A DNA stretch of 64,000 bases from Eledone cirrhosa (taxonomy: Eukaryota), in NCBI GenBank assembly GCA_964016885.1, contig OZ024740.1:29388001-29452000 (forward strand). The letters are read 5' to 3'. Position 1 is the first letter of the stretch, and the number at the start of each line of letters is the position of its first letter. Made by a program: the position numbers and the translations under genes. Under the pieces are notes generated by a model that saw only the letters and a program-made list of their open reading frames with translations, ran no database searches and had not been told where the DNA came from. Positions 15,001-58,730 of the stretch are shown in pieces.

Positions 15001-18000
15001 CATAGGTGAGTACAGCTCCAACACTTAGTGAGGACACCTCTAACACAGGGTGAGGACACCTCCAACACTGGGTGAGGACACCTCTAACACTGAGTGAGGA
15101 CACCTCCAAACACTGAGAGAGGGCGCGTCCAACACTGGGTGAGGACATCTCTAACACTGGTGAGGACATATCTAACACAGGGTGAGGACACCTCCAACAA
15201 TGGGTGAGGACACCTCCAACAATGGGTGAGGACACCTCTAACACTGGGTGAAGACATCTATAACAATGGGTAAGGACACCTCCAACACTGAGTGATGAGA
15301 CCTCTAAAACTGTGTGAGGACACCTCCAACACAGGGTGAGGACACCTCCAGCACTGTGTGAGGACCTCTCCAACACTGGGTGAGGACACCTCCAACACTG
15401 GGTGATGACACCTCCAACACTGGGTGAAGACACCTCTAACACTGGGTGAGGACACCTCCAACACAGGGTGAGGACACCTCCAACATAGGTTAGTACAGCT
15501 CCAACACTGAGTGAGGACACCTCTAACACAGGGTGAGGACACCTCCAACACTGGGTGAGGACACCTCTAACACTGGGTGAGGATACCTCTAACACTGGGT
15601 GAGGACACCTCCAACACTGGGTGAGGACACCTCTAACACTGGGTGAGGATACCTCTAACACTTGTTGAATTCACCTCCACCACTGAGTGAGGACACATCT
15701 AACACTGGGTGAGGACACCTCCAACACTGGGTGAGGACATATCTAACACTGGGTGAGGATACCTCAAACACAGGGTGAGGACACCTCTAACACTGGGTGA
15801 GGACACATCCAACACAGGGTGAGGACACCTCTAACACATGGTGAAGACACCTCCAACACTGGGTGAAGACACCTCTAACTCTGGGTGAGGACACCTCCAG
15901 CACTGGGTGAGGACACATCTAACACTGGGAGGGAACACCTCCAACTCTCGGTGAAGACATATCTAACACTGGGTGAGGACACCTCTAACACTGGATGAGG
16001 ACACCTCCAATATATGGGTGAAGACACCTCTAACACTGGGTGAGGACACCTTTAACACTGAGTGAGGACACCTCTAATACTGGGTGAGAACAACTCCAAC
16101 ACTGTGTGAGGACATATCTAACCCTGGCTGAGGACACCTCTAACACTAGGTGAGGACACCTCCAACACTTAGTGAGGACACATCTAACACTGGGTGAGGA
16201 CACATCCAACACTGTGTGAGGACATATCTGACACTAGGTGAGGACATCTCCAACACTGGGTGAGGACACATCTAACACTGGGTGAGGACACCTCTAACAC
16301 TGGGTGAGAACACCTCCAACACTGGGTGAGAACACCTCTAACACTGGGTGAGGACATATCTAACACTGGCTGAGGACACATACAACACTGAGTGAGGACA
16401 CCTCTAACACTGGGTGAGGACACCTCCAACACTGGGTGAGGACACCTCCAACACTGAGTGAGGACATATCTAACACTGGGTGAGAACACCTCTAACACTG
16501 GGTGAGGACATATCTAACACTGGCTGAGGACACATACAACACTGAGTGAGGACACCTCTAACACTGGGTGAGGACACCTCCGACACTGGGTGAGGACACC
16601 TCCAACACTGAGTGAGGACATATCTAACACTGGGTGAAGACATCTCTAACACTGGGTGAGGACACCTCCAATACTGGTTGAGGACACCTCTAACACTGGG
16701 TGAGGACACCTCCAACACTGAGTGAGGACACTTCTAACACTGGGTGAGGATACCTCTATCACTGGGTGAGGACACCTCCAACACTGAGTGAGGACACTTC
16801 TAACACTGGGTGAGGACACCTCCAACACTGAGTGAGGACACATCTAACACTGGGTGAGGACACCTCCAAAACTGGGTGAGACATATCTAACACTGGGTGA
16901 GGACATCTCCAACACTGGGTGAGGACACATCTAACACTGGTGAGGACACCTCCAACACTGTGTGAGGACATATCTAACGCAGGGTGATGACATCTCCAAC
17001 ACTGGGTGAGGACATCTCTAACACTGGGTAAGGACACCTCCAACACTGGGTGATGACACCTCTAAAACTGGGTGAGGACACCTCCAACACTGGGTGAGGA
17101 CACCTCCAAAACTGAGTGATACACCTCCAACACTGGGTGAAGACACCTCTAACACTGGGTGAGGACACCTCCAACACAGGGTGAAGACACCTCCAACAGT
17201 GGGTGAGGACACCTCCAACACTGAGTGAGGACACCTCTAACACAGGGTGAGGACACCTCCAACACTGGGTGAGGACACCTCTAACACTGGGTGAGGACAC
17301 ATCCAACACTGGGTGAGGACACCTCCAACACTGAGTGAGGGCACCTCCAATACTGGGTGAGGATACCTCAAACACAGGGTGAGACACCTCTAACACTGGG
17401 TGAGGACACCTCTAATTCTGGGTGAAGACACCTCCAACACTGAGTGAGGACACCTCTAACACTGGGTGAGGACACCTCCAACACTGGATGAGGACATATC
17501 TAACACTGGGTGAGGACACCTCTAACACTGGGTGAGGACACTTCCAACACTCTGTGAGGACACCTCCAACTCTGAGTGAGGACACCTCCAGCACTGGGTG
17601 AGGACACATCTAACACTGGGAGGGACCACCTCCAACTCTCGATGAGGACATATCTAACACTGGCTGAGGACACATCCAACACTGAGTGAGGACACCTCTA
17701 ACACTGGGTGAGGTCACCTCCAACACTGGGTGAGGACACCTCCAACACTGAGTGAGGACATATCTAACACTGGGTGAGGATACCTCTAACACTGGGTGAG
17801 GACACCTCCAACACTGAGTGAGGACACTTCTAACACTGGGTGAGAACACCTCCAACACTGGGTGAGAACACCTCCAGTACTGGGTGAGGACATATCTAAC
17901 TCTGGGTGAGGACACCTCCAACACTGAGTGAGGACACCTCTAACACTGTGTGAGAACAACTCCAACACTGTGTGAGGACATATCTAACACTGGCTGAGGA

Positions 18001-18392
18001 CACCTCTAACACTAGGTGAGGACACCTCCAACACTTAGTGAGGACACATCTAACACTGGGTGAGGACACCTCCAACACAGAGTGAGGACATATCTAACAC
18101 TTGGTGAGGACATCTCCAATACTGGGTGAGGACACATCTAATACTGGGTGAGGACACCTCTAACACTGGGTGAGAACACCTCCAACACTGAGTGAGGACA
18201 TATCTAACACTGGGTGAGGACACCTCTAAAACAGGGTGAGGACACCTCCAACACTGGGTGAGGACATATCTAACACTGGGTGAGGTCATCTCCAACACTG
18301 GATGAGGACACATCTAACACTGGGTGAGGACACCTCTAACACTGGGTGAGGACATTTCCAACACTGAGTGAGGACACCTCTAACACTGAGTG
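1..18392. repeat. 22-bp tandem satellite, consensus AACACTGGGTGAGGACACCTCY, roughly 830 units, runs off the left edge
   Basis: Continuous 22-nt periodicity with point variants; abrupt end at ~18392. The minus-strand ORFs are translations of the unit. Confidence 0.98.
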
Positions 18393-18922
18393 TATTGAAA
18401 GGACTCTCCACAAATCTAACAATGTATTCTCCGGTCTCGAATAACACACCTCCTCCCCCAGCTTATTAATATTTCAGATTTTTTCCACACACCTCCTCTC
18501 ATATTCCACCCTACCCCACTTCCGCTTATTAAATTTTGCTATTTCATCTCCGGCGAAATTTTATTTTAAGTGGTAGCATTCCTGCGACAATTAATTTTCT
18601 TTAGATATTAAAAAACATTATACATAACAAAAAAGAACATTACTAGAAATCTCATACGAAATCTTAAATAAATAGGATGGGTTGGGTCTCAATATGTAAA
18701 CTAAATGACTAATTCTGGGGGTTTTTTTAAATCAACGGAGACAACCGAGAAAAATTACCGATATTCCACACACACACACACACACACTACACTTTTCTGT
18801 GGGGCTCGAGAGTAGATTACAAATATTGACTCAATGGTGTATATTATGAACATTTGCACCAAATTGTATCAGTATGTCCTGCACCAGTCCCAATAAAATA
18901 CCTTTGTGATCCAATAATATAT

Positions 18923-19103
18923 TTGTTTCTACTTTAGGCACAAGGCCAGCAATTACCCAGTTCATTACTGGTGCTTTATTTTATCGACTCCGTAAGGATG
19001 AAAGGCAAAGTCAAACTCGGCGGAATTTGAACTCAGATTGTAAAGGGACGTAACTATGCTGGAAAGCATGGCGTCCGACCCTCTACCGATACTGCCAATC
19101 CAC
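18923..19103 (-). mobile_element. tRNA-derived SINE, family 1 (Meta/MESC-like central domain)
   Basis: Minus strand has A-box-like TGGCAGTATCGG, B box GAGTTCAAATTCC, GCCTTTCATCCTTACGGAGTCGATAAAATAAAG and the end TAAAGTAGAAACA; about 15 copies in the window. Confidence 0.9.
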
Positions 19104-19180
19104 ATATTATAGCAAAACTGCACTACCTCTGCCCCTAGAAAACAAAATACATGTTGTACTCGTATAAACTTACACCTGAA

Positions 19181-19320
19181 GGCGCATGGCTTGGTGGTTA
19201 GAGCATTGGGCTTGCAATCGAAAGGTTGTGGGTTCAATTCTCGGACCGGGTGATGTGTTGTTTCCTTGAGCAAGACACTTTATTTCACGTTGCTCCAGTT
19301 TACTCGGCTGTAGAAATGAG
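19181..19320 (+). mobile_element. tRNA-derived CORE-type SINE, family 2
   Basis: A box TGGCTTGGTGG, B box GGTTCAATTC, then CCTTGAGCAAGACACT...GCTCCAGTTTACTCGGCTGTAGAAATGAG. Confidence 0.8.
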
Positions 19321-19638
19321 ATGATAGGACTGAGGTCCCTATCATTAAATCACCCAAGACACTTCCAACGAGATATATCTTGGAGGAGGCCAGCTAAACC
19401 TGCATACGTGTGAGCTGTCACACACAGACACACACACAAACTTTCACTGGTCAAAGAAAATTATGTGAAAAAGCTATTGAATAAAGACAGGCAGTACATA
19501 ATAAGCATGACATCATTCTATAGGAGATAAGAAACTCTCAGGAGAGCTGGATAGTAGAAAGTCTTTAGAGAAGAAATAACACCCAAGCAACTGTTTCAGC
19601 CTTTAACTTCTATATAACAAACACTATGAGAGCATATT

Positions 19639-19787
19639 GTTCTGAGTTCAAATCCCGCGAAAGTTAACTTTGCCTTTCATCCTTACGGGCTCGATAAAAT
19701 AAAGTACCAGTAAGTATTGGAGTTGATTTAATCGACTTTCCTCTCCCCTTCAGATTGTTAGCCTTTTGCCTAAAGTAGAAACAATTA
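19639..19787 (+). mobile_element. SINE family 1, 5'-truncated
   Basis: TCTGAGTTCAAATCCC...GCCTTTCATCCTTACGGG...TAAAGTAGAAACAATTA. Confidence 0.85.
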
Positions 19788-20022
19788 TTTATTGATATGT
19801 ATGCATAGTCCCGTAATTCCTGATGGAATCGTTGGGGTGCCGTATCTTCATATGACGTTAATAAGGAATATTTTAAATCCAACATCTCTCCAGAATTTGC
19901 TGACATAGTAATATCAAATGATTATAGCGCTGTGTAATAATAAGCTGAAAGGGTAGGGAATTACAATGACTAGAATATGGTGTAAAACATTATATCTAGT
20001 ACGGAACTCAGACCGTAAAGCG

Positions 20023-20146
20023 ATGCTTTCTAGCATAGTTATGTCCCTTTACGGTCTGAGTTCAAATCCCGTCGCGGTTAACTTTAATAAAGTACCAGTA
20101 ATGTACTGGATATTTGCTGGCCTTGTGCCAAAAGTAGAAACAATTA
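20023..20146 (+). mobile_element. SINE family 1, internally deleted
   Basis: B box and 3' end present; central GCCTTTCATCC block missing. Confidence 0.8.
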
Positions 20147-20713
20147 TATCAAGTACGGTATCTATCTATCGTATTATATGTAACTAGTACAACTGAAATT
20201 ATACAAAAAGACTTCTGTTTTAATATTGAGAATTTACCAATGAGGATAGACATATGTACGTTCTAGAAAATGGTAGTACTTTGCCCTGTAAATATGACAT
20301 TCTCTGCAGACTTTCTTAATCAAGAAAATATTTTTAACATTGCATATTTATGTTATCTTTGAACATTCTTGTTAAATTTGAAGATTTTTATACATATTTT
20401 CCAAGCTGTGTCTCATTATTTGATCTATATCTCCAAAGATGAATAACAAATATAATAAAAATGGTGATTTATTACTTGTTTTACTTACATAGTCAAGCAA
20501 TTTATCGTTTGGATATGTCTATCAAATATGTGATTATATTCTAATAAAACTCATTTAGATTAACTTATAGCACAGTAAGAATGTAAGAAGTTCATAGTTA
20601 ATAAATTATTGAATCTCTTTCGATAAATAATAATCGTCTTAAGATTATAGAGACGTCATTTAATGTAACGAAATCTATTTATAAGAAAGTATACCAATAT
20701 TATATCTTACTAA

Positions 20714-21040
20714 TGTGTATGAGTACATGTATATATGTATATGTGTATGTATGTATGTATGTATGTATGTATGTATGTATGTATGTATGTATGTATGTAT
20801 GTATGTATGAATCTACGTACATACGTATGCATATATGTATGTATGTTTGTTTGTATGTATGATATATGTATGCATGTGTGTATGTGTGTATGTAAATATG
20901 TATATATGTATGATGTATACATGATGTATGTAAGTATGTATGTATGTTTGTATGTATGTATGATGTATACATGATGTATGTAAATATGTATGTATGTATG
21001 TATGTATCTAACTATCTAACTATGTATTCATATATGTGTA
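20714..21040. repeat. (ATGT)n microsatellite
   Basis: Direct reading. Confidence 0.95.
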
Positions 21041-21261
21041 TTCTCTTCCTCATTGCAATTTTAGAGTATCTTCCTCGGGTAGTGTACTAGTAAAGCCAAT
21101 CAACACAAGAGAAATTGTCTTAATTTATAAAGATGGTCAATATAGTTTCTTGATTCCAGAAACTGCTGCTAGGGAATAGATGTGAGTGAAACACTCATGT
21201 ATTAGTTGACTCTACTAGTACTCTACCCGGTGGAGACTTGGCATAAGTTTTTCTGTTTACT

Positions 21262-21462
21262 TACGAGGGTCGGCTCAAAAGTTCATTGGCTGACTATGAA
21301 GCATTGATGCTAGAGCTGTGAAATCTCGCATGCATTAATTTTAACTCGTCTTATTAATAACTGCATTGTTTTTTCCAGGGACTATGCTGGAAATTAAACC
21401 TCATTTGGTCATTCCATGAGAGTATCTTGGTCAGCCTATTGAATGTTCAATGACAGTCGTAT
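21262..21462. mobile_element. mariner-like MITE, degenerate
   Basis: Left end TA-CGAGGGTCGGCTCAAAAGTTCATTGGCTGAC; right end GTCAGCCTATTGAATGTTCAATGACAGTCG-TA is an imperfect inverted copy; a similar terminus lies at ~34741-34766. Confidence 0.55.
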
Positions 21463-21518
21463 ATATATATATAGTGACGAAACATAAGTCAATTGCATGA
21501 ACTCATAATCCTTTATTT

Positions 21519-21574
21519 ACTGCTATATATATTTCGATGATAGCCATTGAATGGCTATGGCCTCATCAGGCAGT
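21519..21574 (-). ncRNA. type I hammerhead ribozyme in TA-flanked island 21473-21638
   Basis: ACUGC CUGAUGA GGCCAUAGCCAUUCAAUGGCUAUCAUC GAAA UAUAUA UA/GCAGU: stem I ACUGC:GCAGU, palindromic stem III, AUA site, then AAUAAA. Confidence 0.85.
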
Positions 21575-21633
21575 TAGTCAGTTCTTAGATATGCCAGCTC
21601 TGTTTTTATAGTGTTGATGGTATCAGTGCCTTG

Positions 21634-21680
<47 letters not shown>

Positions 21681-21836
21681 TTGGAGCTCTGAAATAGCCA
21701 TATATATATGAATGTATATATAATGTATTTTGCAATACACTTTATGCTTAATTAAAAGCATTTTGAAGACCGTATGCTATTGTTTTAGAGTAGTGACAGA
21801 CTCACTTACTTTAATCTCAGCAAAGAGGGGGAGATA

Positions 21837-21882
21837 AGCCGACAAGGCCTTGTTTCTGCATTTTTTTATGCTTATCAAGGCT
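21837..21882 (-). ncRNA. hammerhead ribozyme variant with U3:A8 core
   Basis: AGCC UUGAUAA GCAU AAAAAA AUGC A GAAA CAAGGCCUUG UC/GGCU. Confidence 0.7.
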
Positions 21883-22213
21883 AACTACTCCCTCCCGTCT
21901 ACTGAGAGCACTGATGTTATATTCTTATAGAATTCTAGTAAATAATCAGGAACTGATTATACAGAGCAGTTGCCGGTCAGGCAGAAATTAAAAATTAGAA
22001 TTGGAGCTCTGAAATAGCCATATATATATGAATGTATATATAGTGTATTTTGCAATACACTTTATGCTTAATTAAAAGCTATTTCAGAGCTCCAATTCTA
22101 ATTTTTAATTCCTGCCTGACCGGCAACTGCTCTGTATAATCAGTTCCTGATTATTTACTAGAATTCTATAAGAATATAACATCAGTGCTCTCAGTAGACG
22201 GGAGGGAGTAGTT

Positions 22214-22259
22214 AGCCTTGATAAGCATAAAAAAATGCAGAAACAAAGCCTTGTCGGCT
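22214..22259 (+). ncRNA. hammerhead ribozyme variant with U3:A8 core, inverted-arm copy
   Basis: AGCC TTGATAA GCAT...ATGC A GAAA CAAAGCCTTG TC GGCT. Confidence 0.65.
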
Positions 22260-22384
22260 TTATCTCCCCCTGTTTGCTGAGATTAAAGTAAGTGAGTCTG
22301 TCACTACTCTAAAACAATAGCTTACGGTCTTCAAAATGCTTTTAATTAAGCATAAAGTGTATTGCAAAATACATTATATATACA

Positions 22385-22461
<77 letters not shown>

Positions 22462-22465
<4 letters not shown>

Positions 22466-22842
22466 GTGAAGTGAAAGAGTGAAGAATAACATGGTCGACT
22501 GTTCCAAAAGGGTTTTATTTACAGCAGTATTAACAGAGACACACACTGTATTTAAGGTTGAGTGGCGCAACTTCGAATGATCAGCAGCATTTAGACTCAC
22601 CTGATCAATGAAACAATTGTTAATACTGTAAATAAAACCCTTTTTGTACAGCCGACCATGTTATTCTTCACTCTTTCACTACTATTACTCCAAGAATAAC
22701 CTGCATGGAGTTTCTCGCATACTCGCTACCTAACTATGGAAACTTCTTGTTGAGTCAAACAATGGCGTACGTTAAAACTATCCATAGTACAGAGTACTCA
22801 CAACCTCTAACTGGATTACCTAAAACGATAACTTGTTATCCC
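22462..22842. mobile_element. TA-flanked inverted pLTR-like island carrying only the 3' half of a hammerhead
   Basis: 22468-22534 is inverted against 22618-22680; GAAA CAATTG TT AATACTG at 22610-22628, then AATAAA. Confidence 0.65.
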
Positions 22843-22872
22843 ATATATATATATGTGTGTGTGTGTGTGTGT

Positions 22873-23110
22873 ATACTGTAATATAAGTTTGGCAGAGATA
22901 TCCAAGGGTAAGAGCACTCAGTCCATTGGACGACTTAACTTTAATTAGTTACAACAGTGATATATACAGGTACTTAAGTCTCGCTGGGTTAGTTATACAC
23001 CCCAGCGCTTTCAACATGTTATATAAAAAGAAAAATATAACAGGCTGAATGAGTTGGGGTGTATAACCCAACGAAACTTAAGTAACTGTGTATGTCACTG
23101 TTGTAACTAA
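22873..23110. mobile_element. microsatellite-flanked inverted pLTR-like island
   Basis: ATTAGTTACAACAGTGA...CACCCCA (22944-23004) inverted against 23055-23111; left arm has an extra tail. Confidence 0.75.
23040..23089 (+). ncRNA. hammerhead ribozyme with a 1-nt core insertion (CUGAAUGA)
   Basis: ACAGG CUGAAUGA GUUGGG GUGUAUAA CCCAAC GAAA CUUAAG UA/ACUGU; the inverted arm reads UA/CCUGU, a perfect stem I partner. Confidence 0.7.
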
Positions 23111-23127
23111 TATATATATATATGTGT

Positions 23128-23171
<44 letters not shown>

Positions 23172-24014
23172 GTATAAGCGGTCCACCAAACATGAACTAC
23201 CCCAGGGCTCACTAAAAATCTAAATATGGTCTTGTAAGAACAATTTGTGACAGCAAGTGTGTATCTTATACATGATGACATGGCAGTCCGTTCGGTGGTA
23301 TGTCTTAGCTGAGATAGTTTGGCTATTTTAATGGAAAGACTAATGGCAATTAAGAGATATTTAATGAGATTATTAATGGCAGGTGACAACCATTTGAACA
23401 CGTCTAACGTACACTTGATCTTCTTTCTATAAGGGATTGTTAAATCTCTGTGAAAAACACTTTAATAAGGACTTGGTGTTTTCTGATTGTCGATTTCTCC
23501 AGGATTGTTCTTCTACCCAGCCATTAATTTTATATTCTTTCTCTCCATGTTTACAGAAGACCTCTTCTGGTGTTTGCTGCCATAAAAATTGTTTGTTGAA
23601 TTCATCCTTTCTTCCCTAAATAGGCATCCAGTAGATTTCGACTGCAGTTATTTATATTGAAGCTAAGATTTGGGGGTCTGTACGTATGTATGTATGGTGT
23701 GTGTATGTATGTATGTGTGTGTATATATGTATGTGTGTGTATATATGAATGTATGTATGTAAGCGTGTGTAAATGTGAATGTGTTTATGAGTGTGTGCGT
23801 ATATATATATGTGTGTGTGTGTATGTGTCTGTGTGTGTGTCCGTGTGTGTGTGTGTGCGTGTGTGTGTCCGTGAGTGTGTGTGTGTGAGTTAAATTACTT
23901 GCTGATTTGCCGCTGAGAAAAAAATTCCCTTCACAGCGGCAAAACAACTTAAGTAAATTTCAATAAACACAATTTTGGCTCAAGCAGACGACAATCAGTC
24001 TCCATGGATTTTCT

Positions 24015-24081
<67 letters not shown>

Positions 24082-24243
24082 GAGAGAGTGAGAGGGAGAG
24101 AGAGAGAGAAATGTGCATGTATACTCACCGATGTACATAGAGTTACTATTTACAAATAAATATACATTCTCAAGCTACGCATGAGGCTTCCACTGCGACA
24201 ACACATTGGCTAAAACCAGTAATATATATATATATATATATAT

Positions 24244-24524
24244 ACGATATTAACAAATGGAAACTATATTTATAAAACCATATTTATTTCATTATACATA
24301 TTTCAAGGACACCAAGTTAAATTATGGTGTGCTTTCATCAGACAAAATATAATATAGGTCAGTTTTATAAATAAATATTGACATACCCTTAAAAAATGCA
24401 ACCATTACTGTTGGAAGCTCCCGGATAGTCCCAAATACTTATTCCAAATACTTGTTGAGTGCTTTATATCAGTTATAAAAATATTTGCTTGTTGTATCCC
24501 AACAATGTAAATAGAACTTTTGCA
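24244..24524. mobile_element. Penelope-like pLTR fragment, family P1, two-arm insertion in (TA)n
   Basis: Left arm starts ACGATATTAA and right arm ends TTTGCA-TATA, the same ends as 25146-27569 and 32905-33011. Confidence 0.75.
24285..24349 (-). ncRNA. type I hammerhead ribozyme, family P1
   Basis: UAUUUUGU CUGAUGA AAGCACACCA...UGGUGUCCUU GAAA UAUGUA UA/AUGAAAUA. Confidence 0.85.
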
Positions 24525-24547
24525 TATATATATATATATATATATAC

Positions 24548-24617
<70 letters not shown>

Positions 24618-24620
24618 CAC

Positions 24621-25147
<527 letters not shown>

Positions 25148-25187
25148 GATATTAAATAAATGGAAACTATATTTATAAAACCATATT

Positions 25188-25253
25188 TATTTCATTATAT
25201 ATATTTCAGGGATATCATATTAAAAATATGTTATGCCTTCTTCAGACAAAATA
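25188..25253 (-). ncRNA. type I hammerhead ribozyme, family P1
   Basis: UAUUUUGU CUGAAGA AGGCAUAACAUAUU...AAUAUGAUAUCCCU GAAA UAUAUA UA/AUGAAAUA. Confidence 0.85.
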
Positions 25254-26029
25254 CAATATAAACAGTCTTATAAATAGATAGATTCGACATACCTTTCAAC
25301 TTCGACTTCTATTTGAAAAGTTGATTTGGTAGTGGAAAAAATATTAGGGACAGTTATAAAAAGAAAGAAAGAAAAACGAAGAAAAAGAAGAAATGCATGC
25401 AACTAAATAGAGAGAGATAGATATAGAGAGATAGATAGAGAGAAGAAATTCATGTAAAGAAACAGAGAGAGATATATAGAGAGAGGAAAAAAACCACAGA
25501 GGGAGATAGATAGAGAGAGAGAGAGAAGAGAGGAGAGAGAGAGAGAGAGAGAGAGAAAATATAGAGAGATAGATATAGATAGAGATAGAGAGAAAGAAAA
25601 TAGGTAGTTGTGCACCAGTTGAATGACGTATCAATGATATATTTATTTATTTATTTATTTATTTAGCTCTAGTATTAATGTAGAGAGAGATATATGTGGT
25701 TAAGAGAGAAACCAGCCGTTACATAGAGGGAAAAGAAAAATATCCAGACAAAAACGAGGCAGATTTAAAACACTATGTATCATCAATGTAAAAAATATCA
25801 ATTCGTATAAAACAGGCATTATAATGTAAATATCAGTATTCATGAATGAGACACGTATCAATGTGTGAAAAATATTGATCATATGTCTAGTTTAAAATTC
25901 ATAGGTTTATATTTATACTAAAATTCCCTTAATTTACGGACAAATTTATTCAGTTGCTGCAGACATAGATTGAACTCAACTTTTAAATATAAATATAAAT
26001 TTAAAATGTAGTATATTTAATTTGATTTA

Positions 26030-26670
26030 TAATTATTTATGAAACTCGCCGATAAATCTTTCGATTCCTTTTTATTTTAAACATTCTTCATGAATAATTA
26101 AACTACCCTAAAAGCTGATGCTCCAAATATATCGAATAAATTTTACACTAGATAAACCTCTTAAATATAAGACCATCTGTAGATCAAATGGGTATCCTAA
26201 ACTTTTGGAATGTTTTCTGCTAGACAGGATTTGGTAAATAATTTTTGGTTTTGTTTGCTTTTGATTCTGATGCTCATAACGAACTTGGCAATATATTGTC
26301 AATTAACTTTGAAGGGTTGATCTCTGTGGTTGATTTGCGGGGCATACTATGTTTCATTTTTATTTTTATATTTTTAATATTTTTAATATTTTTATTTTTA
26401 TTTTTATTTTTAATATTTTTTTGTATTTTTTTGATTTTTTGTTTTTTATTTACTTTTTGTTTCTGATATTTTTATTGATATATTGATATCTGTTCTCTAT
26501 TTATGCTTGAACGATAATCATGTAGAGTAAAGACATGAATAGTATTGTTAAAATTAATGTAGACTCTATATATATTTGTGTGTATGTACGCATATATGTA
26601 TACTAGAATTTTTATAGCACAATGAGAATGTTTTCGTGTGAAATAGGAATTTGCAGAGCTGATCACGTAA
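26030..26670 (-). pseudogene. possible decayed Penelope RT-thumb plus GIY-YIG endonuclease remnant
   Basis: Broken frames in the expected order: NSYFTRKHSHCAIKILVY..YRVY..LHDYRSSINREQI, a Lys-rich linker, then RVV*LF...FIGE (compare GVVY...YIGE). Confidence 0.4.
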
Positions 26671-27109
26671 ATTCACATGGATGTATATAGTATAAAATCT
26701 GGGATAACCTTCTATTTTGTCTCAACTCTAATATAAACCTATGAATTTTAAACTAGACATATGATCATTATTTTTCACACATTATTGATACGTGTCTCAT
26801 TCATGAATACTGATATTTACATTATAATGCCTGTTTTATACGAATTGATATTTTTTACATTGATGATACATAGTGTTTTAAATCTGCCTCGTTTTTGTCT
26901 GGATATTTTTCTTTTCTCTCTATGTAACGGCTGTTTTCTCTCTTAACCACATATATCTCTCTCTACATTAATACTAGAGCTAAATAAATAAATAAATAAA
27001 TAAATATATCATTGATACGTCATTCAACTGGTGCACAACTACCTATTTTCTTTCTCTCTATCTCTATCTATATCTATCTCTCTATATTTTCTCTCTCTCT
27101 CTCCTCTCT

Positions 27110-27140
<31 letters not shown>

Positions 27141-27372
27141 CTGTGTTTTTTTTCCTCTCTCTATATAACTCTCTCTGTTTCTTTACATGAATTTCTTCTC
27201 TATATCTATCTCTCTCTATTTAGTTGCATGCATTTCTTCTTTTTCTTCGTTTTTCTTTCTTTCTTTTTATAACTGTCCCTAATATTTTTTCCACTACCAA
27301 ATCAACTTTTCAAATAGAAGTCGAAGTTGAAAGGTATGTCGAATCTATCTATTTATAAGACTGTTTATATTG

Positions 27373-27438
27373 TATTTTGTCTGAAGAAGGCATAACATAT
27401 TTTTAATATGATATCCCTGAAATATATATAATGAAATA
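27373..27438 (+). ncRNA. type I hammerhead ribozyme, family P1, inverted-arm copy
   Basis: TATTTTGT CTGAAGA ... GAAA TATATA TA ATGAAATA. Confidence 0.85.
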
Positions 27439-27565
27439 AATATGGTTTTATAAATATAGTTTCCATTTATTTAATATCGTAAATATACTCCAAATACTTG
27501 TTGAGTGCTTTTATATCAGTTATAAATATTTACTCGTTGTTAACCCAACAATTTAAATAAAACTT

Positions 27566-27657
<92 letters not shown>

Positions 27658-27662
<5 letters not shown>

Positions 27663-27900
27663 CATTATAAAGAAAGAAGAAACATTAGATATAATTAATA
27701 ATATGCCACGAAACTGCGTAGACGAGGAGTAATCAGGAATTTGGGTATGGTATATCTTATTAATTATATCTAATGTTTCTTCTTTCTTTATAATGTATTA
27801 TATAGCTCTGATACTGAATCAATCCATTCGGATTATTTTGTCCCAGTTATTCATAGAGCAACAATGGTTGAGGTTGGCACCACAAATTCAGGGATATATA
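27658..27900. mobile_element. TA-flanked inverted island (~44-bp arms), possible hammerhead 3' half
   Basis: TAATACATTATAAAGAAAG...TTAATAA inverted against 27757-27800; GAAACTGCGTA at 27710. Confidence 0.5.
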
Positions 27901-28329
27901 TGGATATATTCATGTATATGTATGTGTTCGCATGTATCTGTGTATTTCTTTATATTGTATATATATATATATATATTATTGAATAAACAAGAGAGATGAA
28001 CACTAATATAAACATACATGTGTTCGAATCGTAAGGACCAAAATTTACTAGGGTGAAAAAATACTAACTACAGCAATATGGTTTGTTATACTTAACTTTA
28101 AATATTAAATTAAGAAAAATTAAGAATAATAACAGACCTATATTGGGTAAAACGCCTGGTAACAACTAGACAGTATTGGAGACTGTTCCGAAACGACTTA
28201 TTAAGTGAAGTTCTCACGTTTCCCTGCTCCTCAGTGGTTGTTGAGAAATTAGTGATCCTTTCACTTCTAAAAATATTAGAGAATGAATTGTGTACGATAT
28301 GAATTATCGCACGTGTCATTCGGAACCCC

Positions 28330-28390
28330 GAAGAAGAAGAAGAAGAAGAAGAAGAAGAAGAAGAAGAAGAAGAAGAAGAAGAAGAAGAAG

Positions 28391-28433
<43 letters not shown>

Positions 28434-28680
28434 GGAATATCAACAACAACAACAACAACAACAACAACAACGACGACAGCAACAACGACAAAAACAACGA
28501 CAATATCAACAATATCAACAATATCAACAACACCACCACCAACAACAACAACAACAATATCAACATCAACAACAACAACAACAATATCAATAATATCAAC
28601 ATCAACAACAACAACAACAATATCAACAAGAACAATGACAGCAACAATGACAAAAACAACAACAATCACACCAACAACAA
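28330..28680. repeat. (AAG)n followed by (AAC)n trinucleotide tract
   Basis: Direct reading. Confidence 0.95.
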
Positions 28681-28834
28681 AAAGCAAAACTGTTGGAAGT
28701 TTTAACGTCAGATTAAATGTGATGGAGGGACGATGGTTGAGACGGCGTCTCAATAATTAGTGACTAAACGAACAATACTGGTAGAAGTGGGAGGTCATTT
28801 TATATAGGGATCACTTGATGTGTTGTATGAGATA

Positions 28835-29556
28835 TGGTGGGAGGCGGTGACGGGGTGCTGGTGGTGGTGGTGCTGGTGGTGGTGGTGGGGTGATGGTGGT
28901 GAGGGTTGGGAGGTTAGTGTGGGGTGTAGTGGTGGGGGTGGGGGTGGATGCAGTGGTGGTGGTGGTGGTGGTAGTGGGGGAGGGCGGTGAGGTGCTGCTG
29001 GTGAGGGGGTGAGAGGGGTAAGTGTGGGGAGGTGGAATGGTGGGGTGGAGGCGTTGCTAGTGGTGGTGGTGGTGGTAGTGTGTGTGTGTGTGGGGGGGGG
29101 GGCTGCTGGTGAGGCAGCCGCTGGGGACATAGAATTGGAAAAGGACGGATTTGATAGATGGATAAATAGATGGATTGTCTGATAGGTTGGTGTTGGGTAG
29201 GGGTAGGGTAGTAGGTGGTGGGGTGGGTAAATATATAGATTGGAGGATGTGCAGAGAACTGGGTTGATAGATAGCTGGGTAGATGGATGGGTGGATGGCG
29301 GGATGGGTGGATGGCGGGATGGGTGGATGGTTGGATGGGTGGATGGGTGGATGGGTGGATAGTTGGATGGTTGGATGGGTGGATGGGTGGATGGTTGGAT
29401 GGTTGGATGGGTGGATGGTTGGATGGGTGGATGGTTGAATGGGTGGATGGGTGGATGGTTGGATGGGTGGATGGTTGGATGGGTGGATGGTTGGATGGGT
29501 GGATGGGTGGATGGGTGGATGGGTGGATGGGTGGATGGATGGATGGGTGGATGGGG
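28835..29556. repeat. G-rich low complexity: (GGT)n then (GGAT/GGGT/GGTT)n
   Basis: Direct reading. Confidence 0.9.
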
Positions 29557-30059
29557 TGAAGGAAAGAGGAAAAGAAGGAAGGAAGAATGTGATAGGGAGA
29601 GAGCAAGGAAGAAAGGAAAGAATGAAAAGTGGTAGGAAGGAAGGAGAGAGTAAAGTGGGCGAGAAGAGAGAGCGGGGAAAGTGATAAAGAAATGGATATA
29701 ACGCTGTTGATATAGAAAAGTAATAAAGAAAATAGGAAAGATTTAGACTATAAAAGACATTTTAGGAGAAAAACTGAAATAATGGAGTTGGATAAATATT
29801 TGAACAGGAATATAGAGAATAAAGAGAGGGTGGAGAGGGGGAGAGACAGGGAGAGAGGGGGAGACAGACAGTGAGAGAGAATGATTGCTAGATAGAAAGA
29901 TAGATAGATAGATAGGATTTGTATCGCATCTACATATTCATCAGAAGCGATACACACACACACAGATATATATACACATACATAAATACACATATATTTA
30001 AATATATATATATATATACATATATTTAAATATATATATATACATATATATAAATATAT

Positions 30060-30110
<51 letters not shown>

Positions 30111-30117
<7 letters not shown>

Positions 30118-30720
30118 CGTAAAATAAGAAAATTTAAAAAAAATTTTTAAAAATTAACTTACTAAAATTTTCACTCCAACTAATTAGTTTCTGCAATGGG
30201 ATAAAGACAGTTACGTAATAAACTGTTGAGAATTCATTGCGTCATCAGGGAGGTCTATTCTCAGCTAAGTCTCCAGGCAATGCGCGGACACTGGGGACTC
30301 ATATAAAAATAATAATAATTCGGTAAATGGAACAGCTAGCGGGGACTGGATTCCATGCACTGAAAATCTCGCTGTCACTGGTCAAATGGTAGATTCTAAA
30401 GAATCAATCACGTGACACTGAGGCTAGTCGGTAGGAGTGGGATGGTAAGATGACAGAAGCCTACTAACACACCAAAAAATTGGTAGTGGTTTTGGCAGGT
30501 TTGCTCGACAAATAAGTGATTTGGAGATAAATATAGAGAATTTAGTATATCTACTAATAGCGTACAGATGTACGCTAATGCCAGCAAATACACAGGTTAC
30601 GTCTTTTATATTATTGTTCTGCATCCTCCTGCATTGAACCACCTAGGTACTATGACATAACCTGTGTATTTGCTGGCATTAGCGTATATCTGTACGCATA
30701 TGTTAGTAGATATACTCAAT

Positions 30721-30722
<2 letters not shown>
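30111..30722. mobile_element. retrozyme/pLTR-like element of the 553-bp family, copy 1
   Basis: Homologous to 46131-47450; left arm 30111-30599, inverted arm 30598-30722; TA-flanked. Confidence 0.85.
30174..30252 (-). ncRNA. type I hammerhead ribozyme, 553-bp family
   Basis: CUCC CUGAUGA CGCAAUG...CAUUGCA GAAA CUAAUUAG UU/GGAG. Confidence 0.85.
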
Positions 30723-30761
<39 letters not shown>

Positions 30762-30826
30762 ATATGTATATATATATACATATATATATACAGTATATTT
30801 ATATATACATACATATATATACAGTA

Positions 30827-30890
<64 letters not shown>

Positions 30891-30893
<3 letters not shown>

Positions 30894-31029
30894 CAAAGGA
30901 AATGTGGTAAGGAACCAGATGGACCATAACGCACCAGAGTATTCAATACTTAGGGTAGTAGAGTGGGATTTAATCCAGAAATAGCTGTCGAAATGGCTTG
31001 AGCTCTGTCATCGGGGTCATACTTTTTCC

Positions 31030-31031
<2 letters not shown>
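30891..31031. mobile_element. TA-flanked two-arm island, same family as 53923-54120 and 47502-47630
   Basis: Shares GTGGTAAGGAACCAG...CAATACTT...GTAGAGTGGG and GTCGAAAYGGCTTGAGCTC...GGGGTC...TTCCTATA. Confidence 0.7.
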
Positions 31032-31060
<29 letters not shown>

Positions 31061-31126
31061 CAAGGAGACAACAAACAGAGACACAAAAGGCTTAGTTTCA
31101 CGCTTTATATTGGAAAGAGGTAAGAA

Positions 31127-31164
31127 AGTTCGACGTGTCGGGCCTAAGCCCTTCTTAGGGAGTT
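31127..31164 (-). ncRNA. degenerate minimal hammerhead
   Basis: CCUAAGA A GGGC UUAG GCCC GACA CGUC GAAC: stem II intact, both core segments mutated. Confidence 0.45.
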
Positions 31165-31343
31165 AAAATAGAGACAGGATCACAATGGAGAAACGGAAAG
31201 AGGGTCCAGTAAAGACACAAAAAAAAACGAAAATGAAAAGGGAAAACAAATATATATATACTATGTATAGACATTTTAACGATTTTAAGAAGCCGTAGCT
31301 ATGCAAACACCTCTGGTGGTGTTCAGCAGTAGCAAGGGGGACA

Positions 31344-31387
31344 ACCGTCTATGCATTTCAGGCTTGACTGGCCATCGTCAGGACGGT
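31344..31387 (-). ncRNA. type I hammerhead ribozyme
   Basis: ACCGUC CUGACGA UGGC CAGUCAA GCCU GAAA UGCA UA/GACGGU. Confidence 0.88.
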
Positions 31388-31649
31388 CTCTCCCACCGAA
31401 TGCTACTGCTGGACTTGAAAACAGTCGAGAATATATAGTTTTCTCGTCTGTGTAAATGAGGTGATTAATCTCATTTGCATATGAAGCTGCATAATTTGGC
31501 TGAACTTATGATAGAATGGAAATAAGATTTCGCTTCAAGCATAGCTTTATACAATATGTATAGAAATTTCGTTAATCACCTCATTTACACAGACGATAAA
31601 ACTATATATTCTCGACTGTTTTCAAGTCCAGCAGTCGCAATCGGGGGGA

Positions 31650-31699
31650 GGGAGCGTCCTGACGATGGCCACTCAAGCCTGAAATGCAAAGACGCTCCC
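31650..31699 (+). ncRNA. hammerhead ribozyme with mutated cleavage triplet (AAA)
   Basis: GGGAGCGUC CUGACGA UGGC CACUCAA GCCU GAAA UGCA AA GACGCUCCC; 9-bp stem I. Confidence 0.8.
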
Positions 31700-31863
31700 T
31701 GCCATCGCTTGCTTCTGCTGGACACCACCAGAGGGCGTTAGCCCCTCGGTGTTTTCATAGCTACGGCTTCCTAAAACCGTATTTCTTTAGAAATACGAAA
31801 TTTCTATATATATTGTATAAAGCTATGCTTGAAGCGAAATCTTATTTCTTTTCAAATATATAT

Positions 31864-32275
31864 ACTAGCAGAGGTACCCGGCGTTGCTCGGATATTAAAT
31901 AGCAGTTGTGTATACCATTTTGTCAATACTTCAGTGCTGCTTCGAAAACTATACTTTTACAAAACATCGGCTTTTTCCAAAAGGGGGTTCCTGCCTTCAG
32001 GGGTCCCCTACTCAATATGTGCCAATTCTGAGAGTTCACATTCATCTGTAGGACAAACGTAGCCCATGTGTCAAGTTTTGTGAAAATCGATTGCGAACTC
32101 CAGAAGTTATGACGTTTTGTTGCATTGCACTGCAGTGTTAAAGGGGTTATCTGCCGGGGGGCCCTATAATCAATATCTAGAAAAATGAAAGTGCCCATGA
32201 CCATCCGGAGTTCATAAGTAACCTATGTCTTAAGTTTGGTGAAAATACTGTAGAAATGCATAAGGTTTATACATA
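31864..32275 (+). mobile_element. non-autonomous Helentron-like (HINE/DINE-type) element
   Basis: Starts ACTAGCAGAGGTACCCGGCGTTGCTCGG; close copy at 42810-43232. Confidence 0.6.
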
Positions 32276-32872
32276 GTAGATTTGTTTATATATGAATGAC
32301 AAAAAGAAAAGTACAAAACTATACATGAATTGTTTCTACTAAACCTTCAATTTAAGACACAACCTACATATTTGATAGGACTCCAGCTCACACCTTCTTC
32401 TTCTTCTTCTTCTTCTTCTTCTTCTTCTTCTTCTTCTTCTTCTTTTGCTCCTCCTGGAACATTGGGCTGCGAGCCACCCCCACACAACGCCATGTTCTGA
32501 GTCTGCTTTTCAACTCCACCGTGATGCACGGTGCGTCATGGTGTATCTAACCATTATTTTAGGTCTTACTACGGCTGATTTCTTCCAGAGAGAAAGAAAG
32601 AGATGGAAAAATGCAGAGAAGATTCATCGCCGGAGGAATAATAAAAAATGTTTACACTGCATATTTCATTTTTCCAAAGCTAAAGCTGCCGATCCAAAAT
32701 CAGTAATTCAACTCCCTGAAAACTTTCAAATATATGCTGTTCTAGCATGAATATTATGCTAAGGGGCAGCTGTCCACAAAGTAAGATTTACTTGCATATC
32801 CCCGCTCATATAAACACATAAATACATGCATACATACATTACAGTTGATATTTTTTTTATTAAAGCGTTTTC

Positions 32873-32904
<32 letters not shown>

Positions 32905-32907
<3 letters not shown>

Positions 32908-33011
32908 GATATTTAATATCGTAAATATACTCCAAATACTTGTTGAGTGCTTTTATATCAGTTATAAATATTTACTCGTTGTGACCCAACAATTTAAATA
33001 AAACTTTGCAT
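32905..33011. mobile_element. minimal family P1 insertion (8-bp left arm plus right tail)
   Basis: TATA-CGATATTTAATATCGTAAATATACTCCAAATACTTGTTGAGTGC...CTTTGCA-TATA. Confidence 0.75.
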
Positions 33012-33034
33012 ATATATATATATATATATATATA

Positions 33035-33222
33035 GTTGTCTCTACTTTAGGCACAAGGCCAGCAATTACCCAGTGCATTACTGGTACTTTATTTTATCGA
33101 CCCCGTAAGGATGAAAGGCAAAGTCAACCTCGGCGGGATTTGAACTCAGATCGTAAAGGGACGTAACTATGCTGGAAAGCATGGCGTCCGACCCTCTACC
33201 GATACTGCCAATCCACCGCCCT
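33035..33222 (-). mobile_element. SINE family 1, full length
   Basis: Complete from AGGGCGGTGGATTGGCAG to TAAAGTAGAGACAA on the minus strand. Confidence 0.9.
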
Positions 33223-33224
33223 AT

Positions 33225-33799
33225 AATGGGTGGTGGTTGAAATTCAGTTGTGCACGGTTAAATGGGAGTAGACGTAGTCGGACGGACATGAAAATTTACA
33301 CACCTATGTAAAAAGTGCCAAGGAAGCAAATAGATGAGGTTTGAAATCTCTAACTTGAAAAATGTGGTCCCTGGGGCCCCAAAACGGTCTATTTACTATC
33401 GCGTTCGGTGAGTTATTTGCCCCTGTTCTAATACTTGTGTCTTATTTACAATTTCATACAAATAAAGCAGTAAAAAAAGGATTATGAGTTCATGCAATTG
33501 ACTTATGTTTCGTCACTATATATATATATATAGTGACGAAACATAAGTCAATTGCATGAACTCATAATCCTTTATTTACTGCTTTATTTGTATGAAATTG
33601 TAGGCAAATAACTCACCGAACGCGATAGCAAATAGACCGTTTTGGGGCCCCAGGGACCACATTTTTCAAGTTAGAGATTACAAACCTCGTCTATTTGCTT
33701 CCTTGGCACTTTTTACATAGGTGTGTAAATTTTCATGTCCGTCCGACTACGTCTACTCCCATTTAACCGTGCACAACTGAATTTCAACCACCACCCATT
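33225..33799. repeat. large palindrome (arms ~270-290 bp) centred on a short (TA)n
   Basis: 33225-33516 inverted against 33533-33799 with one ~26-bp indel; inner 50 bp match 21473-21524. Confidence 0.9.
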
Positions 33800-37890: not shown

Positions 37891-39608
37891 TTTCTTTATT
37901 TGCCACAAGGGCGTACAAGAAAAGGGGACAATACGAAGACACATGCCGTGGATTTTACATACAATCATGTAAAAATATTATTAAATCAAACAAAGTTAAC
38001 AATCGAAATCCCCAATAGGGGGGAGGCGTTACAAATGGGTTGTTTAATACCCCATCGATAGAACAACCCTCAACTTCAGGAGCATGTTGTGCAAGTGCTC
38101 CCTTCCTCATTTTGCTCTCTTCTTTATCCTACAGGTTTATAAACAGAGAAGGCCTAATCACTCGGGCCAATTTTGTTACATTCACCCACCTTTCAATAAA
38201 TTTACTGGGGTGCAGTACCTCTCTCTCCACTCTGATTCCCCTTCTAATGTGGTACTTAAAGAAGGGAATCAATTGTTGTCCGGAGAGAAAGGCATCTGTC
38301 CTCAGTCCTCTCAATCTCGTCCACCATATAGCTTCTTTCACCATAGCCACTGTACAGAGGAAAACCGCCTCTCTTTCGGTTTTGAAAGAGGCTGGCGGTT
38401 TGATCCTTACTATGGACTCGGCAGTCAACTGGATTTGTCCCATACGCGACAGCAGTTGTTCTGCGTAGTTCCACAGGTCGGTTACGCCCGGGCAGTGTAC
38501 AAATGCGTGCAGGACGGTTTCAATGTGCTGCTCGCATCCTGGACACGTCCTCTTGGAAGGATGCCTGCTGGGGCGTCCGTGCTTTTAGATCTTGTCTCGA
38601 ACTGGTAGAGCTCCTGCCAGGCTAGGGACTATTGGAAATTGTCCATAGGACCCGGGCAGAAAGTTCTACCGAACTGATTGGTGAGCTCGTCGTCTTCGAC
38701 GCCCAGAGTCTCTCGGAGCACGTCGTCGCACTTGTGAATTACTAACCCTCTATAAAATGTCGAAGTGGAGCCTCCACTTATTGCTGTGCCCGCTTCACAG
38801 AGGACTATGAGCGCCTGAGCGCATTCAATGTGCCAAGCGCCCATTTTCGGTCTCCGTTTGACCCAGGACTGCAGCTCCGTCAGCCAGACAAGTTGCGGGA
38901 AGGCCTGTCTCACAAACGGTGCCCACACCGGTTGGTCAGTGAGGAATACCTGGAGATGCCGTAGCCTCAGCTCATATTTGCGCATCATCAGCAACGGCAT
39001 TCTCAGCCCTCCGTTGGAAAGGTGCTGACAGCAGACGGATCTCCTCACCAGTGGAGCCTGCTTCTTTCAAAGGGACTGGAAGATCATGCGTTCCATCTTG
39101 GCGAGGTGTTCATGGGGACAAGGCACGACGGTCAAGCGGTAGTAGATGACGGACGCTATGAAAGTGTTCGCCACTTCCGCTCAACCTTTCAAGGACAGTT
39201 TGCACTCTGCCCACTTCTGGGTGAGCGCAAATACCTTGGCCGTTACCTCGTTCCAGTTTTTCTCCACCTGGAGGTCCGGACCGAACCAGACCCCGAGCAA
39301 TTTCACCGCTCCGTCCGTCCAGCGTCCGACGACGCTGTCGGGCGGCATCGGTTTGCCTCTCCACGTACCGAGTTGCAAACCGACAGGCTTGTCCGGGTTA
39401 GTTTTGCTCCTGTGAACCTTTCGTATTCCTGCAGTAAGTTGCCGATCGCCCCGAATTCCGAGGTTTTCAACACCATTACCGTCTCGTGGTCGGCATAAGC
39501 CGACGCCGCTTTCCGCAGTCTCGGTTCCAACGGGATGCCCTGCAGTAGCTCCAACTTCCGCAGTAGTGGATCTAGAGTCAGTACATACAGAATGGTGGAG
39601 AGAGGGCA
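37891..39608 (-). mobile_element. Tx1/L1-clade non-LTR retrotransposon, 5'-truncated, frameshifted RT
   Basis: CPLSTILYVLTLDPL, AYADH (YADD), VKLLGVWF, LSLKG; 3' end CCCTTGTGGCAAATAAAGAAA followed by (TCTA)n. Confidence 0.85.
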
Positions 39609-51092: not shown

Positions 51093-51095
51093 AGG

Positions 51096-51181
51096 GGTCT
51101 GACGAGCCGCGGATTTACAGAGTCGGGTCAGATTGAAACAGATCGAACCTTGAACTGATCAGTGGCGAAACGCGCGTCACC
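51096..51181 (+). ncRNA. type I hammerhead ribozyme with long stem II, in island 51092-51235
   Basis: GGU CUGACGA GCCGC...GUGGC GAAA CGCGCG UC/ACC, then AAUAAA; canonical GUC site. Confidence 0.85.
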
Positions 51182-51230
51182 AACCAATAAACGTAATGAA
51201 GGAGTAACCAATCGTCTTGTTATTTTTATT

Positions 51231-51316
<86 letters not shown>

Positions 51317-51362
51317 ATTAAGTCTATGCTAAGGTATATCAATATCTTAACAATAAATATTA

Positions 51363-57132: not shown

Positions 57133-58730
57133 GATGGCACCTTATTGAAGGAATATGAAAGGTTGACAGGAGCCAAACTTAACCCGGAAAAGTCGGTGGG
57201 CTTGCAACTCGGAACCTGGAGAGGCAAGCCCATGCTGTCCAACAGCGTCGTGGGGCGCTGGACGGACGGACCGGTAAAGTTGCTCGGGGTTTGGTTAGGA
57301 CCAGACCTCCAGGTGGAAAAGAATTGGGACGAGGTAACGAGCAGAGTAGCCAGTCTCACCCAAAAATGGGCTGGGAAGAAGCTATCACTGAAAGGTCGCG
57401 CGGAGGTGGCGAATGTGTACATCGCGCCCGTCATCTACTACCACCTGACCGTCGTGCCTTGCCCCCCGTCCGCGCCTCGTCAAGTTGGAACGGCTCCTCT
57501 TTAAATTCTTGTGGAGGGGACAAGTTCCGTTGGTGAGGCGGTCCATCTGCTGCCAGGACCCTCTACGCGGAGGGCTGGGCATTCCGTGGCTAATGATGCG
57601 CAGACATGCGTTGAGGCTGCGACATCTCCAGATATTCTGCCTAAACGGTGAACAGGTGTGGTCGCCTTTTATCAGACAGGCTTTTCCGCAGCTCATTTCT
57701 TTGACTGAGCTGCAGTCAAAGCTGGGTCAAGAAGAGACCGAGAGTGGGTGACTGGCACCTGGAATGTTGCCAGGCACTCACTGCCCTCTACCAAGAGGGC
57801 AATGCGATCAGTGGAACTTCCACTCTCGAGTTCTATAGAGGATTAGTGGTGGGAAAGTGCGATGACGCACTCGGAGAAACTTTGGGCCTCGACGAAGTCG
57901 AACTGACCAGTCTGTACCGGAGGACTTTTGAGCCGGGGACGATGGACAATTTCCAGAAATCCATCGCTTGGCAGTGCTACCGGTTCGGGATAAACTCTAC
58001 AGGCACGGAAGTGCTGTCAGACGGACGTGCCCAAGATGCGCACAGAACGACGAAACCGTTCTGCACGCACTTGTCCAGTGTCCGTGCATTACTGACTTGT
58101 GGAATTATGTCGAACAGCTGCTGTCGCGTGTGGAGCGAATCCGGCTATCGGCTGAGTCCATAGTGAAGATCGACCCACAGCCTTCCTTAGGTCAGGAAGA
58201 GCAGGAAATTTTCCACTGTCTCGTGGCAGTTGCCAAAGAGGTTATATGGTGGACCAGATTAAAAGGACTGAAGACAGACACTTTTCTCTTCGGCCAATTC
58301 CTCATCAACTTCTTCATGTTTCACCTGGAAAGGAAGGTGAGGGTGGAGAGAGAGGTGGTGCCCCCCCCCCCCACACACATTTGCTAAAAGGTGGATGAAT
58401 GTCGCGATAATGGCACGTGTGAATGGGCCTACTCTGACCATGTGCCTATAGGCTAGCTAACTTGAGGAGAGGGGTGCTCTCCCTGGGTGCCCTAGAAGCG
58501 CAGGGTGGTTCAGGATTGGTGGGGTACCCGAGTCACCCCAGGGTCGTCCACCCCATATCGGGGAATTTATTTTGTTATATTTATGCATAGTTTATTTTAT
58601 ATTTTTATATCTTCATTGTTAAATTAGTCTTGCCATTGTGAACTTTTACTCAACCTTATTGTAAACCCCCACTGTCCTTGTCTTTGTATTGTCCCCTACA
58701 TGTCGGTCCTTGTGGCTAATAAATGAAATC
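57133..58730 (+). mobile_element. Tx1/L1-clade non-LTR retrotransposon, 5'-truncated, frameshifted
   Basis: YERLTGAKLNPEKS, VKLLGVW, LSLKGRAEVAN, GGLGIP, zinc knuckle CPRC..ETVLHALVQC; 3' end CCTTGTGGCTAATAAATGAAA. Confidence 0.88.

Follow-up and report, generated by a model that had tools for sequence, protein, structure and literature searches.

Do the hammerhead ribozymes of Penelope-like elements cut RNA in vivo, and can the cut RNA serve as a template for reverse transcription? Tail fusions, in which the sequence 3′ of a ribozyme cut is joined to something else, could speak to this question, and a 2014 paper reports that no in vivo evidence exists for hammerhead cleavage of Penelope-like elements (PMC4209133). 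We examined one such fusion, at positions 33225–33799 of a 64,000-nt stretch of DNA (the window), which the initial annotation had described as a genomic fossil of in vivo cleavage.

An inverted pair and its hammerhead-bearing counterpart

The window is microsatellite-rich and apparently eukaryotic. Within 18000–64000 (46 kb) lie about nine distinct hammerhead-bearing families; most have tails that end in (TA)n and several form head-to-head inverted pairs, which matches the anatomy described for Penelope-like elements (PMC4209133, PMC8557442, PMC3846280). One hammerhead family—47304 (+), 46396 (−), and 30248 (−)—has an unusually long stem II with ~50 nt between CUGAUGA and GAAA, a 4-bp stem I, and an 8-nt palindromic stem III; another hammerhead, at 51093–51234 (+), has ~60 nt inserted in stem II as well as a CGCGCG palindrome and occurs as a single copy between microsatellites. 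Positions 1–18000 hold a long tandem array of ~22-nt units (GC ~52%, strong AT skew). Near-perfect inverted repeats (98–99%) flanked by (TA)n occupy 21700–22397 and 24715–25034, with no hammerhead core found in them.

The locus itself consists of two inverted arms on either side of (TA)8 at 33517–33532, each joining a repeat (repeat X) to a short tail (Table 1). The initial annotation had matched this tail and its inverted twin to a hammerhead-bearing copy (copy H), and the match holds: 33533–33583 is identical to 21474–21524 at 51 of 51 bases, and the twin at 33466–33516 agrees at 50 of 51, differing only at 33475. Its start in copy H, given as 21473, shifts by one base to 21474. The composite of X and tail ends at the same base as copy H and adjoins (TA)n; a 3′ end and terminal base common to the partner family are what is expected of a non-autonomous element mobilized by Penelope-like machinery.

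Table 1. Coordinates of the locus, of copy H, and of their parts in the window
Feature	Position	Strand	Remarks
Copy H, short, hammerhead-bearing; likely a 5′-truncated Penelope-like pLTR with tail	21474..21637	-	Between two (TA)n tracts
Tail of 50 nt, on the 3′ side of the predicted cut and running up to (TA)n	21474..21523	-	Deepest part of the aligned stretch in runs X1 and X11
Minimal type I hammerhead, predicted	21519..21574	-	Motif-and-helix scan
Dispersed repeat, which we take to be SINE-like	33018..33223	+	Left arm of X begins directly after its end
Repeat X, left arm, 242 nt	33225..33466	+	Unrelated to the hammerhead; lacks a long ORF and an Rfam family
X–tail junction	33462..33467	+	Break at −5 to −1 of the predicted cut; first base past the cut is G33467
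Tail, left arm	33467..33516	+	49/50 identical to copy H
(TA)8, center of the tail-to-tail inverted repeat, presumed target	33517..33532	.	Sequence
Tail, right arm	33533..33582	-	Identical to copy H
Repeat X, right arm, 217 nt	33583..33799	-	Without 25 bp of the left arm, 3 substitutions; may reach ~8 nt further

Copy H carries a hammerhead with a predicted self-cleavage site at 21524/21523 on the minus strand. The call comes from a scan for CUGANGA, GAAA, and NUH together with the helices, and the predicted structure comprises CUGAUGA from 21569, GAAA at 21535–21532, a 5-bp stem I, a stem II of 2 bp followed by an internal loop and an 8-bp hairpin, a palindromic UAUAUA, and UA/GCAGU at the cut. 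PMC4209133 describes the minimal type I hammerhead of metazoan Penelope-like elements by CUGANGA and GAAA boxes, NUH, a stem I of 4–5 bp, G10.1–C11.1, and a palindromic loop III, and copy H has all of these. An Rfam search returned no hammerhead match at copy H; minimal variants may fall outside the Rfam models. As a monomer, its hammerhead fold reaches −8.3 kcal/mol versus −15.2 kcal/mol for the minimum-energy fold, a gap of 7 kcal/mol. Within the window, this is the only core joined to this tail.

The family of copy H is likely Penelope-like. Its tail downstream of the hammerhead ends at an AT-rich target, and it has many copies. The assignment rests on anatomy because no Penelope ORF (linked RT and GIY-YIG) was found in the 18 of 75 window ORFs of at least 100 aa that were scanned; these gave only zf-RVT and unrelated weak hits, and no autonomous partner of the family. 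The zf-RVT Pfam hits (38129–38584, 57932–58387, and 63091–63927) are likely decayed LINE fragments.

Repeat X and its junction in other samples

Four of 13 listed runs (X1, X3, X5, and X11, from organisms A, B, C, and A) were aligned to 33225–33524 at 85% likeness. X was covered in all four, and part of its left arm is present in 7 of the 13 listed runs, from three studies. No RNA run containing the stretch was listed, which carries no information on expression. Summed contig depth—which is not copy number, and which lies far above the depth of 2–37 of individual listed contigs—was 2,000–17,000 along X in run X1 (organism A) and 50,000–200,000 over 33265–33374 in run X5 (organism C), where a diverged continuation of X appears as loose ends behind 33368–33394. 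X is a repeat in three organisms, separate from the hammerhead element. At 33437 in run X1, a variant of X carries an insert of 36 nt in which a short motif from just upstream recurs, a hint of a decayed internal tandem unit.

The nature of X was approached by elimination. A coding sequence was rejected on the ground that no ORF >59 aa overlaps X, and a decayed hammerhead on the ground that similarity was no better than in shuffles. Rfam gave no family, only below-threshold miRNA-type hits due to hairpins and microsatellites. Exact scans yielded 0 matches for the X motif in metagenomes and 0 for the tail motif in metagenome, viral, and prokaryote collections; the X motif in three viral contigs matched over only 18–21 nt and was treated as chance. 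X may resemble HINE/DINE-type elements. HINE/Helentron elements are described as having 12–15-bp subterminal inverted repeats near their ends, a 3′ stem-loop, and a TT target (PMC4067079). No such repeats were found near the ends of X, whose longest inverted repeat (11 bp) is internal and confined to the right arm. X may be truncated at both ends, so the missing repeats lower membership without excluding ancestry.

The tail's usual partner is the hammerhead, which forms the loose ends 5′ of the tail in four of four runs. The X–tail junction nevertheless recurs beyond this locus. In organism B, record 15 of run X3, a 160-nt contig aligned without gaps over 33336–33495 (4 differences), crosses the junction and extends 29 letters past the cut, below the 31-letter bridging rule (34 letters if the break is at −5); it appears to stop where the last X-specific 31-mer would end. 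In organism A (run X1), a depth of ~3,160 is left at 33455–33464 after subtraction of hammerhead-type contigs, and 1,395 of the 50,629 depth at 33465 is not hammerhead-type; no loose end stands behind the junction among the rows listed. From this depth, we infer that the junction is multicopy in organism A. The equivalent values in run X5 are ~19 and 48 of 4,707, so organism C, in which 99% of the depth at 33465 is hammerhead-type, combines abundant X with little of this junction at 85% likeness.

Five letters common to both arms are unlike the majority letter in the sequencing runs. Together with the junction seen in other samples, they indicate that a single copy likely gave rise to both arms, which differ mutually by a 25-bp indel and four substitutions, and that the junction probably stems from one founder event, inherited from elsewhere, rather than from two. 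Two independent insertions are disfavored by the same letters, with the proviso that a species-specific subfamily would give an equal pattern. The initial annotation had placed the event at this locus; given the organism-B contig and the organism-A depth, that placement is abandoned and the junction counts once.

Position of the break relative to the predicted cut

Exact identity between the X arm and copy H extends without a mismatch to −1, the base just 5′ of the predicted cut. Four of the five bases before the cut also match between X and H, and BLAST and the read aligner both carry the match to −5 (33587 and 33462). Because both sides are A-rich, the break is placeable anywhere from −1 to −5, and on these alignments the true break is within that interval. 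A break within one base of the cut, as first described, is right for exact identity and too narrow for the break itself. The −5 position sits inside a (TA)4 loop, which matches the (TA)n tracts among which the H family lies.

Upstream of the junction the resemblance ends. Over 20–100 nt, X was no closer to the hammerhead than dinucleotide shuffles (16 tests, p 0.07–0.95), which bears out the observation that the ribozyme continues at 21524 and that unrelated sequence stands at the arms. No poly(A) tract is present at the junction. The candidate that X is another ribozyme was rejected, since junction-region folds were no better than shuffles (z −0.41 and −0.01).

If cut RNA were a regular template, 5′ ends might be expected to gather at the cut, and the initial annotation had tied its reading to such enrichment. 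The outcome leans negative. In run X11, 838 of the 876 reads covering 33475 have the hammerhead as their 5′ loose end (712 + 51 + 75), at most 38 are not itemized as hammerhead, and at least 96% of tail reads thus read through it; these counts are of reads, not loci. X11 is a RAD run whose molecules end at AATT sites (33241, 33293/33296, 33453, and 33499), and because two such sites flank the X junction 50 bp apart, it is blind to X-type junctions and was rejected as a count of them. At 33466–33468 in the same run, 126 tail reads carry a hammerhead variant with an altered GAAA box, likely from one or two dead copies.

Ten other hammerhead-family 5′ ends in the window lie at −138, −119, −114, −86, −60, −35, −29, −28, −21, and +37 from their predicted cuts, none within 20 nt. 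In this tally, the ends at 51357 and 34262 are limits of detectable homology and the family-C cut is uncertain (weak stem I); the copy at 61751, with no partner and no confident cut, is omitted. For 11 tries and an interval of 3–11 nt, the probability of one hit is 0.17–0.51. Enrichment at the cut was accordingly not found within the window and the X11 reads, the truncated class being sampled in the window only. Four of the ten ends or inversion points (42732/42735, 34069, 34262, and 46913) fall at −21 to −35, two of them in stem II and the other two where the core begins, which suggests that reverse transcriptase stalls or folds back within the ribozyme there, not at the cut.

Origin and spread of the composite

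We consider the two arms best explained as an inverted pair of one ~290-bp composite element, repeat X plus the 50-nt tail. Combined with a likely Penelope-like donor family, a single inherited founder, and run-off of reverse transcriptase from ribozyme-cut RNA, the account as a whole falls a little short of an even chance. As described in PMC11167929, a purified Penelope-like protein nicks both strands of AT-rich DNA and extends them; its reverse transcription begins internally, where the tail downstream of the hammerhead ends. Because synthesis starts there, copying of a cut RNA would stop at the cut and leave a cDNA of the tail alone. At the founder event, reverse transcriptase primed at a nicked AT-rich target would have started at the tail end and run off the cleaved 5′ end after 50 nt; X would then have been added to this tail-only cDNA, whether X served as the target DNA or the enzyme jumped to an X RNA, two routes that are indistinguishable. 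R2 offers a precedent, in which ribozyme cleavage sets the 5′ junction and cut ends are joined by microhomology (PMC3774820).

The subsequent spread can be stated with more confidence. The fusion would have kept the start signal for reverse transcription and lost the ribozyme; X transcripts would no longer be cut from the tail, and X–tail transcripts would be copied in trans into (TA)n. That the composite ends at the terminal base of copy H and adjoins (TA)n points to spread by Penelope-like machinery in trans, and we judge this sequence of loss, retention, and trans copying probable. Penelope-like elements are described as mobilizing unrelated sequence in trans (PMC3846280). The tail-to-tail pair may go back to a single source copy, through use of both strands of one (TA)n tract as primers, through fold-back, or through 3′ self-priming, the last of which PMC3846280 names among the ways in which tail-to-tail repeats form.

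Run-off from ribozyme-cleaved RNA as the maker of the founder junction remains a tentative proposal, held at slightly under even confidence. It concerns a single event, none of the ten other ends lies near a cut, and the break can also be placed at −5. In the in vitro work, uncleaved RNA was the main template and cleavage was dispensable for insertion, and in the RNA-seq part of that report no read ended at the hammerhead cut (PMC11167929). Metazoan minimal hammerheads are reported to cleave poorly, and their monomers were not seen to cut (PMC4209133). The same junction would result, without cleavage, if A/T microhomology in the (TA)4 loop had guided an ordinary 5′ truncation, a template switch, or a recombination, and a single event does not separate the two. 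This is a serious possibility, if one we would still bet against: the four matching bases and the aligner limits at −5 allow it with one later substitution, the other window ends (−21 to −138 or +37) show breaks away from cuts, microhomology 5′ junctions are known for Penelope-like elements (PMC3846280), and insertion in vitro proceeds uncleaved. It requires one extra substitution in the founder, or a coincidence of 2–4% for a single event. Selection, we infer, would favor a near-cut position in either case, because a fusion spreads only if the tail is kept and the working ribozyme lost. What stands of the fossil reading is that the junction position fits run-off; the event at this locus, the enrichment, and the ligated circle are not borne out.

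The ligated circle is part of an account that takes X for the Penelope-like element's own 3′ end: the cut RNA would have been ligated to this end or circularized before reverse transcription. Circular templates have been proposed for Penelope-like elements (PMC4209133), and the greater depth of the tail over X in organism A is what 5′ truncation would produce. In organism C the order is the opposite, X at 50,000–200,000 (33265–33374) exceeding the tail at 16,000–33,000 with 99% hammerhead-type depth at 33465, and X has neither a long ORF nor a poly(A) tract at the junction. The reversal of the X-to-tail depth ratio from organism A to organism C makes the ligated-junction option of the initial annotation unlikely. 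Equally improbable is a tail-only insertion that landed once in a copy of X, after which X multiplied by a mechanism of its own, such as that of a Helentron-type non-autonomous element, and carried the tail along: X is abundant alone in organism C and may resemble HINE/DINE-type elements, but lacks 12–15-bp subterminal inverted repeats near its ends, and the last base of the tail is also that of the unit, in (TA)n. The pair might instead be an assembly fold-back of a single copy, which would touch the duplication only and leave the junction unaffected. The palindrome is centered on (TA)8 and no reads were aligned across its center; against this, the substitutions and indel distinguish the arms, the right arm carries the majority letter of the runs at two of the four differing sites, and at the other two no row opposes the left-arm letter among the rows listed, so that we hold a fold-back to be very unlikely. 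Hardly credible is a reading of X as the upstream region of a sister Penelope-like family in which the hammerhead decayed and the tail was conserved, with no true junction. A loose likeness by eye near the junction speaks for it; that likeness is no better than in shuffles, X has no core motif, and the tail is 98–100% identical while upstream similarity is at background.

Relation to known systems

Run-off followed by trans mobilization would set the composite beside several described systems. It resembles Penelope-like pLTRs (PMC4209133; PMC11167929; PMC8557442) through its partner's minimal type I hammerhead (short stem I, palindromic loop III), a tail that lies past the cut and stops at an AT-rich site, 5′ truncation, and inverted pairs. 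It departs from them in that the arms keep the tail only, with an unrelated repeat in place of the ribozyme and no Penelope ORF found in the 18 of 75 window ORFs scanned, and in being tail-to-tail rather than in the head-to-head arrangement described as usual for Penelope-like elements (PMC3846280). Non-autonomous Chlamys elements share a 3′ end with an autonomous partner (PMC8557442), and pLTR-framed captured DNA in Adineta combines an unrelated body with a Penelope-like cis signal (PMC3846280); both are presumably moved in trans. Unlike these cases, the composite shares only ~50 nt, starting from the predicted ribozyme cut, and has no pLTR on both sides.

The boundary recalls R2 5′ junctions and SIDEs, where cleavage fixes the RNA 5′ end and junctions map to the cut (PMC3774820). 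R2, as described there, differs in having an HDV-like ribozyme at its 5′ end and a family-wide rule, whereas here at least 96% of sampled tail reads pass through the hammerhead. Animal non-LTR retrozymes are likewise short non-coding Penelope-derived units, described as head-to-tail tandems with a hammerhead per unit (bioRxiv 10.64898/2026.07.22.740005); the X–tail unit is an inverted pair without a hammerhead. By analogy, the best reading is that the composite works like a non-autonomous element borrowing the 3′ end of its partner. The main texts of the open-access literature searched describe no tail fusion at a hammerhead cut.

The locus is one candidate, compatible with in vivo cleavage and not proof of it. 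A broader proposition, that Penelope-type hammerheads cut in vivo and that tail-only 50-nt cDNAs are grafted onto other repeats to found new non-autonomous families, is unlikely as matters stand. If true, it would amount to tail donation with a ribozyme-defined boundary, in which the start signal for reverse transcription is passed on without the ribozyme. Tail fusions that break at the cut would then be a genomic readout of cleavage and would show how short parasites gain the Penelope start signal.
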